Assembly: GCA_964529805.1 (NCBI GenBank)
Contig: CAZGZT010000007.1
Coordinates: 556 to 64,555 of the forward strand
DNA length: 64,000 bases
Direction: 5' to 3'
Origin: an uncultured Solobacterium sp.
GTDB lineage: Bacteria > Bacillota_I > Bacilli_A > Erysipelotrichales > Erysipelotrichaceae
The number at the start of each line of letters is the position of its first letter. The stretch's first letter is position 1. Below are positions 8,424 to 9,887 of the stretch, piece by piece. The notes under the pieces are model-generated. The model did no database searches. It was not told the origin of the DNA and saw only the letters and a program-made list of their open reading frames with translations. A program made the translations under genes and the position numbers.

Positions 8424-9887
8424 TCAGTCAAGTTCTTTTCCGTTGGTAGCAATCACTTTCTGATACCAGTAGAAAGACTTTTTCCTATATCTATTCAGTG
8501 AACCCTTCCCCTGATCATCCATATCAACATATATGAAACCATAACGTTTGCTCATTTCTCCTGTCTGAGAAGAAATGATATCAATAGGTCCCCACATCAT
8601 ATATCCAATGAGATCTATACCGTTATCGATTGCAGTGGACATTTCAACAAAATGAGATCGAAGGTACTGAATTCGATAATCATCGTTGATATTTCCGTTC
8701 TGATCCAGAACATCTTTTGCACCAAGGCCGTTTTCAGCAATAATGATCGGAAGATGATAACGGTCATAGACAGTCTCCAAATAATACCGTAAACCTAGCG
8801 GATCATAGCTCCAGCCCCAATCGGAGTATTCAAGATATGGATTTCTGTTTCCTTTCATCAGATCTCCACCGACAATATCATCTTTGTTTGTATGAACGGT
8901 ATTTATGCTGGATGAATAGTAGGAAAAGGTAAAAATATCTGCCTTGTTATTTTTGAGCAATTCAATATCGTCTTTGCTGATATCAAGCCTGACGCCGTGT
9001 TCCTTCCAGATCCTTTCCGTAAAGAAAGGGTATTCCCCTCTGCACAGAACATCACCGCTGTACAGAACCCCTTCTTCCCATTTGTTCTGGTTGAACATGA
9101 TGTCTTTCGGATCACAGGTCCCGGGATAGCAACATGTTGCCGCAAGCATACAGGCAATCTTATTTTCGTTATTAATCTCATGAGCAATTCTCGTCACTGC
9201 TGCACTTGCCACAAACTGATAATGAAGTTGCTGAAGTTTCTTTTGTATTTCTTCGTCATCTGTTTCGCCTAATGTGAGACATCTTGTCAGACCGTTGATC
9301 TGATTGAACGGGATCCAGTAATGTACAAAGTCTTTGAACTCAAGAAGACATGTTCTGGCAAATCTGAGATAATGATCAATCATCTCTCTGCTATCCCAGC
9401 CGATGTTATTTTCGAGAAATGCAGGTGCATCAGCATGATATATGGTTATCAGCGGTTCTATGTTATATTTTCTTAATTCGTTAAAAACGTTTTTATAGAA
9501 TTCAATCCCTTCTCTATTCGGTTCTTCTTCAATTCCTTTTGGATACAATCTGGACCAGCTGATGCTCATTCTGAACATTTTGAAGCCCATTTCGGCAAAC
9601 AATGCGATATCTTCCTTGTAATGATGATAGAAGTCGATTGCTTTCTGATTGGGATAGTACTCTCCAGGAATCACAGCATATTCAGCGCCATCTGGAAGTT
9701 CTTCAATCCTTCTTAAAAATCTTCCGGGTTTTCCTTCTTTGTCCAAATACGTTACGTATCTGGGCTTATTATGACTTCCCGCAAGAGAAAAGTCATTCAT
9801 CGTCATTCCTTTTCCATTGACGTCGTATGCTCCCTCGGCCTGGTTGGCTGCAATTGCGCCGCCCCAAAAAAACCCTTTCTTGAACAT
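8424..9887 (-). CDS. GH1 6-phospho-beta-glucosidase-like enzyme with Gln at the acid/base position
   Basis: [25 protein letters not shown], nucleophile motif IIAENGLG and the phosphate-binding [12 protein letters not shown] are all present. The NEI/NEP acid/base motif reads [11 protein letters not shown] (CAG codon at 9300..9302). Confidence 0.9.

Follow-up and report, generated by a model that had tools for sequence, protein, structure and literature searches.

Glycosidases of glycoside hydrolase family 1 (GH1) use the textbook mechanism of two catalytic glutamates, and to our knowledge plant myrosinases and the Klotho pseudo-glycosidases are the only familiar cases in which nature departs from it at the acid/base site. 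A 64,000-nucleotide stretch of DNA from an uncultured Solobacterium sp. (contig CAZGZT010000007.1; hereafter the window) raises the question of what a bacterial GH1 protein might do once this residue has changed. The open reading frame (ORF) at 8424..9887, the sixth gene of a sugar-uptake cassette built around a phosphotransferase system (PTS), encodes a GH1 protein (P0001) with Gln196 in place of the general acid/base. The initial annotation of this frame had read it as a GH1 6-phospho-beta-glucosidase with a myrosinase-like Gln, and had left open whether it was a crippled or regulatory paralogue or a specialised phospho-glycosidase acting on activated substrates. Below we show that the Gln is a fixed feature of a conserved clade, that it recurs in a second bacterial lineage, and that it is accompanied by extensive change around the active site.

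Results

Gln196 occupies the acid/base position of a BglA-like GH1 protein

The assignment of the ORF to GH1 is firm, as the 487-residue product matched the Pfam GH1 model PF00232 with 367 bits (E 1e-109). All four NCBIfam 6-phospho-beta-glucosidase models (PRK09852, PRK09593, PRK09589 and PRK15014) also matched P0001 end to end, each below its curated cutoff, the best score being 545.6 bits against a cutoff of 623. An AlphaFold2 model of the protein (predicted local distance difference test score, pLDDT, 91.6) aligned to GH1 structures with template modelling (TM) scores of 0.85-0.92, the best hits being 6-phospho-beta-glucosidases. Its closest solved relatives are the BglA-type enzymes of E. 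coli (2xhy), B. licheniformis (6wgd), S. pneumoniae (BglA-2, 4ipl/4ipn), L. plantarum (Pbg1, 3qom) and S. mutans (Bgl, 3pn8/4f79), which have the same fold at 41-44% identity. With these enzymes P0001 shares the nucleophile motif, the -1 subsite, the Ser/Lys/Tyr phosphate site, a long L8a loop and linkage to a PTS. Sequence and predicted fold place P0001 in GH1, in its BglA-like phospho-glucosidase branch.

The motif WIPFNQING begins at residue 191, and Gln196 is encoded by CAG on the minus strand, seen as CTG on the plus strand. In HMMER pairwise alignments Gln196 lies opposite the Glu of FNEIN in 6wgd, 2xhy and 4ipl, and a MAFFT alignment of 121 sequences holds 117 Glu and four Gln in the same column. 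P0001 thus has Gln where other GH1 proteins have the general acid/base Glu of the TxNEP/FNEI motif, and the substitution reported in the initial annotation is upheld, as are its CAG codon and the nucleophile and phosphate motifs; the strand has to be corrected, since the gene lies on the minus strand. The comparison with characterised BglA and with orthologues that the annotation had proposed likewise places Gln196 at the acid/base site and finds the Gln kept in the orthologues.

The remainder of the catalytic machinery is retained. The sequence IIAENGLG starts at residue 382, and its nucleophile, Glu385, is invariant in 121/121 aligned homologues. A 12-residue phosphate-binding motif starts at residue 439; S439, K447 and Y449 are conserved, and the L8a loop is extended and without the phosphomimetic Glu, as is typical of the phospho-subfamily. 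Altogether P0001 keeps Q16, H151, N195, Y324, E385, W432, S439, K447 and Y449, the other catalytic and -1 subsite residues, whose roles at the -1 subsite and the phosphate site are taken from the LpPgb1 and SmBgl structures (PMC3605045).

The same genome holds eight other GH1 paralogues, all of the Glu type. In one of them (G000:C3:6437-7798, locus L008) the motif reads SFCEIN, with Cys replacing the Asn before the acid/base Glu; this Asn normally binds the sugar 2-OH in GH1.

The Gln is fixed in a clade under purifying selection

Searching 5.8 billion proteins yielded 120 relatives of P0001, which were aligned with MAFFT. The motif FNQING was found in the cluster of the query itself and in P0003 (77% identity) and P0004 (68%); the other 117 relatives, all at 59% identity or less, read FNEIN. 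The query's own cluster contains five further sequences that differ by 1 to 43 substitutions, with Gln in all, so that the clade comprises eight distinct sequences of 67-100% identity and Gln in 8/8. P0001 itself occurs without any change on 11 contigs that come from several sources. P0003 comes from a second species of the same genus (genome G369), and its acid/base codon is likewise CAG.

The clade is very rare. A word search limited to residues 186-228 matched only the query, P0003 and P0004 clusters, and an orthologue was present in just one of the 35 other genomes searched in the genus (G369), which was also the sole one among 400 genomes of the family, Erysipelotrichaceae as GTDB defines it. 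The genome of P0004 was not found among the 400 family and 400 order genomes searched. In species-representative genomes all relatives obtained were of the Glu type, at no more than 57% identity, in a search whose exact peptide patterns P0003 and P0004 would have escaped, and a metagenome DNA scan for W-x-[T/P]-F-N-Q-I-N-G gave five chance matches with no GH1 among them.

Between the P0001 and P0003 genes, nonsynonymous divergence (dN) is 0.163 and synonymous divergence (dS) is too saturated for a Nei-Gojobori estimate, a contrast which indicates that the gene has been under strong purifying selection. Two trivial explanations could therefore be rejected. A base-call or sequencing error is ruled out even without reads, given the same protein on 11 contigs, seven further Gln sequences at 67-99% identity and the CAG codon of the orthologue; pseudogene decay is ruled out by the presence of Gln in 8/8 clade members and by a dN far below dS.

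The aglycon side of the active site has been rebuilt

The clade is monophyletic, and the branch leading to it is the longest internal one of the tree, at 0.386 substitutions per site where the median is 0.045. The clade has 34 fixed positions whose residues are rare in the 117 Glu-type relatives or missing from them altogether. We placed them by means of the ligand-bound LpPgb1 and SmBgl structures (PMC3605045) and the strand ends of the AlphaFold2 model, and about half fall at the C-terminal ends of barrel strands or at known subsite positions.

Besides the acid/base change itself (E to Q196), the Asn found in 91% of relatives is replaced by G199 at the aglycon-site position of LpPgb1 Asn183, which hydrogen-bonds the +1 sugar (PMC3605045). 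The loop that follows carries clade-specific L200, T201 and R202, the Arg lying six residues past Gln196. Right after the sugar-binding His151, F152 has become Ala and T154 has become Ala; the aromatic residue that BglA-type enzymes have after this His presumably lines the +1 subsite, to judge from counting positions in the alignment. Strand 5 has changed from C/G/I to A/A/T at 249-251. Position 342, Asn in 117/117 Glu-type relatives, is Asp in all clade members, and together with clade-specific L343 and M344 it lies in the loop after strand 6, before the Trp platform of the +1 subsite. Next to the nucleophile, Val has become A384.

On the glycon side, the Ala found in 95% of relatives (LpPgb1 Ala431) is Ser440 in all clade members, and in the phosphate loop Gly or Ser has become Gln441, the equivalent of LpPgb1 Ser432, which contacts the phosphate (PMC3605045). 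The glycon-site Ala and aglycon-site Asn that are conserved in the BglA-like subfamily are thus both missing, Ser440 and Gly199 standing in their places. To judge from the alignment, the aglycon side has been rebuilt and so has part of the glycon/phosphate loop, and a burst of change followed by conservation looks like neofunctionalisation and unlike drift. As P0001 lacks the acid/base Glu, falls below every curated subfamily cutoff and has lost two conserved subsite residues, it should not carry the annotation 6-phospho-beta-glucosidase.

A second bacterial lineage has acquired Gln independently

An exhaustive phmmer search against 1.84 billion representatives gave 150 diverse relatives, among them three further Gln carriers (P0138, P0177 and P0245), and the idea that Gln is unique to the clade of the window had to be discarded. 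The best 120 relatives of P0138, at 76-100% identity, have Gln in 120/120, with the nucleophile, -1 subsite and phosphate residues intact in every case. Their hosts include Holdemanella, Faecalicoccus, Clostridium neonatale, Enterococcus, Paenibacillus taichungensis and Breznakia. The P0138 family occurs in 20 of 200 genomes searched from the family of the window's organism and is therefore common, in contrast to the clade of the window; it is absent from the window's own genome. This second superclade, with the motif WI[VI]CNQ[VI]NL, is represented by the proteins P0138, P0177, P0245 and P0276-P0394 and the loci L154 and L155-L159.

Like the gene in the window, those of the second lineage lie in lactose/cellobiose-type (Lac/Cel) PTS operons with PRD regulators; unlike it, they have no YdjC-like or major facilitator superfamily (MFS) partner, and they often occur as tandem GH1 genes and with a Cof-type HAD phosphatase. 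In one minimal operon (L159), ordered regulator-IIA-IIB-GH1(Gln)-IIC, the Gln-type GH1 is the only glycosidase, and at another locus (L154, G126:C1:484000-501500) four tandem GH1 paralogues all read NQ. Other loci have a Glu-type GH1 as neighbour, and the Cof-type HAD phosphatase often follows.

Members of the second lineage are only 35-43% identical to P0001, and besides Gln the two lineages have in common, against the Glu types, only I192 and A384. In an IQ-TREE phylogeny of 43 sequences the clade of the window lies inside a Glu-type group, as sister to P0095 and P0012, with 97 in the Shimodaira-Hasegawa-like approximate likelihood ratio test (SH-aLRT), and the eight remaining Gln-type sequences group on their own elsewhere (support 99). 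An approximately unbiased (AU) test against a single Gln clade, a group named after the tree had been seen, gave a log-likelihood difference of 193 and p 0.0002. On the strength of the separate placement and of this test, a single origin is rejected, and the sequences imply that Gln arose independently at least twice in bacterial PTS operons. Among solved structures there is no native Gln-type bacterial GH1, and full-text searches of one open-access literature library brought up no description of a natural Gln-type bacterial phospho-GH1.

Some further variation was seen among the representative proteins. The nucleophile motif reads AECG, not AENG, in P0177 (Gln-type) and in P0148 (Glu-type), and some other representatives have His, Ala or Gly in the acid/base column, many of these being fragments or poorly aligned.

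The Gln-type gene belongs to a rare and mobile seven-gene cassette

The seven genes of the cassette (Table 1) are co-directional, and by Pfam the Gln-type GH1 is the only glycosidase among them. Enzymes IIB, IIC and IIA of the Lac/Cel/diacetylchitobiose (Chb) family are all present, as in a chb-type operon, with scores far below the cutoffs of the diacetylchitobiose-specific PTS models. The same seven genes recur in the same order in G369, at 68-92% amino-acid identity and at another site, with no ssrA nearby. Around Glu-type homologues, on the other hand, a weak YdjC-like gene was present at only two of 89 loci and the MFS gene of the cassette at 0/89. From these two observations the cassette emerges as a distinct, rare and mobile unit; we take it to have been acquired horizontally.

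Table 1. Features of the cassette and its surroundings, in order along the window (minus strand -, no strand.).
Feature	Position	Strand	Basis or remark
Repeat copy, MFS side of the cassette	6812..6897	.	Repeat families D1, D2
Intrinsic terminator closing the cassette	7022..7065	-	14-bp stem and U-run; folding free energy (dG) -20.9 kcal/mol, z -4.5
MFS transporter, last cassette gene	7129..8343	-	PF07690; weak matches to sugar and drug efflux subfamilies
GH1 phospho-beta-glycosidase-like gene, Gln-type (P0001)	8424..9887	-	ORF list and translation; 487 residues
Loop L8a, S439-Y449 (11 residues): 6-phosphate-binding Ser/Lys/Tyr, clade-specific Ser440 and Gln441	8541..8573	-	
Codon of Glu385, catalytic nucleophile in IIAENG	8733..8735	-	Coordinates calculated from residue number
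Codon CAG of Gln196, general acid/base Glu position	9300..9302	-	Motif and alignments
PRD-containing regulator (HTH_11, Mga HTH, PRD, EIIA-2 domain)	9923..11875	-	Pfam and NCBIfam
YdjC-like (ChbG-type) putative carbohydrate deacetylase, divergent subfamily	11851..12759	-	PF04794, E 9e-17
PTS enzyme IIA (EIIA), lactose/cellobiose family	12808..13164	-	PF02255
PTS enzyme IIC (EIIC), lactose/cellobiose family	13182..14465	-	PF02378; TIGR00410/TIGR00359 222 bits, below equivalog cutoffs
PTS enzyme IIB (EIIB), lactose/cellobiose family, first cassette gene	14468..14806	-	PF02302; NCBIfam pts-lac IIB
Partial repeat copy, PTS side of the cassette	14980..15015	.	Repeat family D2
Transfer-messenger RNA (tmRNA) gene ssrA, directly upstream of the cassette; edge of low-GC accessory region	15227..15574	-	ARAGORN

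GC content is 0.39 at 7-15 kb and 0.45-0.50 beyond 16 kb; over the whole cassette side of ssrA (1-15600) it is about 39-43%, against 45-50% beyond. Three copies of a repeat of about 36-86 nt (one at 1441-1526, the others in Table 1) mark off two accessory modules from each other, the PTS cassette and a two-component system with a GT2 synthase, and the region resembles a hotspot for integration beside the tmRNA gene. The regulator ORF as listed, with a TTG start, overlaps the end of the YdjC-like gene by 25 nt; since the G369 orthologue aligned only from residue 17, the true start is probably further downstream.

The YdjC-like protein scored 62 bits with the YdjC Pfam domain and E 2e-10 with PDB 2i5i, but only 43 bits, against a cutoff of 227, with the chitin disaccharide deacetylase equivalog. 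Its DD, GWHRHLW and GWHPG motifs are conserved in nine relatives; no counterpart of the third metal-ligand His of K. pneumoniae ChbG was evident in the alignment. In other genera the nearest relatives of the YdjC-like protein (52-58% identity) co-occur with MFS homologues of 61-70% identity in mannose-family PTS operons from which GH1 is absent. In three such loci (L131, 8777-19614; L133, 9165-19894; L134, 2228-8140) the order is regulator, MFS, IIB, IIC, IID, an unknown gene, a metallo-beta-lactamase-fold protein, IIA, a weakly ceramidase-like 405-residue protein, an unknown gene and YdjC. As they are shared by the Lac/Cel cassette and the mannose-family operons, YdjC and MFS look like a portable pair for some chemical feature common to substrates of different PTS types; our guess is that this feature is an N-acyl group.

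Discussion

What, then, might a GH1 protein of this kind do? Replacing the acid/base Glu by Gln cripples hydrolysis of ordinary O-glycosides, while the glycosyl-enzyme still forms with good leaving groups. Engineered Glu-to-Gln mutants have for this reason been used to trap intact substrates, as in Gan1D-E170Q with cellobiose-6P and BglA E166Q (PDB entry titles), and since ordinary substrates remain uncut in such mutants, an active Gln-type enzyme would require an unusual substrate or mechanism. Inactivity, in turn, is hard to reconcile with operons whose only GH1 (L159) or all four GH1s (L154) are of the Gln type. We put the chances at about even that P0001 is an active, specialised phospho-beta-glycosidase for a substrate that needs no proton donor from the enzyme, a view in which catalytic competence, the order of the pathway and the nature of the substrate are all things that we infer.

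The gene content of the cassette suggests how such a pathway could run. The Lac/Cel-family PTS would import and 6-phosphorylate a beta-glycoside, the YdjC-like hydrolase would then take off an acyl group, probably N-acetyl, the Gln-type GH1 would cut the glycosidic bond, and the MFS transporter would move the non-phosphorylated product, that is, the released aglycone. In the third of these steps Glu385 would form the usual covalent glycosyl-enzyme. Gln196 cannot donate a proton, and the leaving group would have to depart unaided or bring its own proton, which could be the case for a thio- or acyl-linked aglycone or for one that has an ammonium or carboxyl group close by, such as an amine unmasked as ammonium by the YdjC deacetylase. 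Water or a small anion could then resolve the intermediate without an enzymic base, comparable to the ascorbate-assisted water of plant myrosinase.

Parts of this scheme have counterparts in known systems. The E. coli chb operon (the ChbBCA PTS, the YdjC-family ChbG and the GH4 enzyme ChbF) combines the same PTS family with a YdjC-family protein and a phospho-glycosidase, and deacetylation before cleavage is its established logic (PMC9402603). It differs from the cassette in its glycosidase, which is the NAD/Mn-dependent ChbF where the cassette has a Gln-type GH1, and in its regulator, which is the AraC-type ChbR and not of the PRD/EIIA type; the cassette also adds an MFS transporter, and its YdjC protein seems to belong to a subfamily distinct from ChbG. 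The other counterpart is the QE-type plant myrosinases (Sinapis alba MYR, Arabidopsis TGG1-6), which have a natural Gln/Glu pair in a GH1 barrel (PMC6691170), and by analogy with which P0001 would hydrolyse, without an enzymic acid, a substrate with a good leaving group. The parallel drawn in the initial annotation is thus real at the level of the catalytic pair, with Gln in place of the acid/base and the nucleophile Glu kept. It does not extend to common descent: P0001, in contrast to the plant enzymes, is bacterial, cytoplasmic, 6-phosphate-recognising and PTS-linked, and because it is nested in bacterial Glu-type BglA-like proteins the resemblance is convergent.

Several observations weigh against an active enzyme of the kind we favour. 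When compared with characterised families, both the PTS IIC and the YdjC-like protein stay far under the curated cutoffs. Since YdjC and MFS partners are missing from the second Gln lineage, a YdjC-dependent mechanism cannot be general, and the scarcity of residues shared by the two lineages leaves no common mechanistic signature for one chemistry. In addition, Glu-type GH1s also cleave activated substrates such as glucosinolates (PMC8660893, PMC6691170), and loss of the acid is thus not needed for such substrates.

Another reading is that the acid/base has moved, most plausibly to Asp342, leaving a conventional enzyme that hydrolyses ordinary phospho-O-glycosides in a rebuilt pocket. The exchange of an otherwise invariant Asn for Asp throughout the clade, in a loop that precedes the Trp platform, would suit such a role, but position 342 is a gap in the second Gln lineage, no acidic residue has been gained in both lineages, and the loop has the lowest confidence of the model (pLDDT 73-81). 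No earlier case of a migrated acid/base within GH1 is known to us, and we regard a relocated acid as unlikely. Alternatively, P0001 could be a non-hydrolytic pseudoenzyme that binds, senses or sequesters a phospho-glycoside as a natural substrate trap, perhaps informing the PRD regulator, whose gene the GH1 gene directly follows. Glu-to-Gln at this site is the standard route to a GH1 that binds without cleaving (PDB titles), and the binding residues are conserved. In that case, however, the cassette would import a phospho-glycoside without any enzyme to cleave it; the nucleophile Glu is moreover invariant in both Gln lineages, and some operons have only Gln-type GH1s, including four in tandem. 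A pseudoenzyme is, in our view, quite unlikely. The crippled paralogue proposed in the initial annotation is unlikely, given that the Gln is fixed across the clade under purifying selection, that the gene is the only glycosidase of its PTS cassette, and that a second, independent Gln lineage is sometimes the sole GH1 of its operon.

If the activated substrate of a working enzyme were a glucosinolate, as the initial annotation had considered, P0001 would be a myrosinase-like phospho-thioglucosidase acting on PTS-imported 6-phosphorylated glucosinolates, and the MFS transporter would expel the toxic isothiocyanate. The clade-specific Arg202 may recall the sulfate-binding Arg that Sinapis myrosinase has a few residues past its Gln, and the cassette does contain an MFS transporter of putative efflux type. 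The catalytic pair is that of the QE-type plant myrosinases (PMC6691170), and C. farciminis handles sinigrin through a PTS and a GH1 enzyme (PMC8660893). Yet the PTS is of the Lac/Cel type and not of the beta-glucoside IIBCA type shown for sinigrin (PMC8660893), the breakdown of glucosinolates has no place for a YdjC deacetylase, and Glu-type enzymes already do the job (PMC8660893, PMC6691170), so that Gln is not diagnostic of the substrate. The initial annotation had overlooked both this deacetylase gene and the MFS gene, which are conserved parts of the cassette. The nesting of P0001 among bacterial BglA-like proteins and not among myrosinases, the S440 and Q441 changes, which suggest a glycon other than plain Glc-6P, and the great rarity of the cassette, found in 1/35 other genomes of the genus, further make this specific version very unlikely. 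A transglycosylase or phosphorylase, in which an anion such as phosphate or a carboxylate, and not water, would take over the glycosyl group from the enzyme for want of a general base, strikes us as highly improbable. Retaining glycosidases deficient in the acid/base are rescued by anions and act as thioglycoligases, which is established enzymology, and one study reportedly engineered a GH1 thioglycoligase; the first step would nonetheless still need a good leaving group, so that the substrate problem stays, and the cassette has no partner enzyme for a beta-glycosyl phosphate. We give almost no credence to a sequencing error, a decaying paralogue or a Gln deamidated to Glu after translation. 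CAG is a single nucleotide change from GAG, the eight Glu-type paralogues could cover a loss, and purified GH1 enzymes have been seen to undergo deamidation of Gln (PMC3605045). Against this stand the Gln in eight distinct sequences, from independent assemblies and from the genome of a different species, the low dN relative to dS, the second origin fixed in 120/120, and the lack of a deamidase common to the two operon types.

Taken beyond the window, the active-enzyme reading becomes a more general proposal, to which we give somewhat less than even chances: bacterial Gln-type phospho-GH1s may be an uncharacterised class of retaining glycosidases without an enzymic acid/base, evolved at least twice in Firmicutes PTS operons and directed at substrates with thio-linked, acyl-linked or self-protonating aglycones, the cassette providing the case in which an amine unmasked by YdjC would serve substrate-assisted acid catalysis. 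This wider result may be worth more than the single case: Gln-type phospho-GH1s recur, are common among gut Firmicutes and are apparently uncharacterised. In these bacteria conserved Gln-type GH1 genes, which go back to at least two independent origins, lie in PTS sugar-uptake operons, where they are annotated merely as 'glycoside hydrolase family 1 protein', and they stand as a warning against transferring the annotation '6-phospho-beta-glucosidase' by homology. The proteins are possible natural thioglycoligase-like scaffolds, and they point to dietary or host-derived glycosides whose bacterial catabolism has not yet been described.

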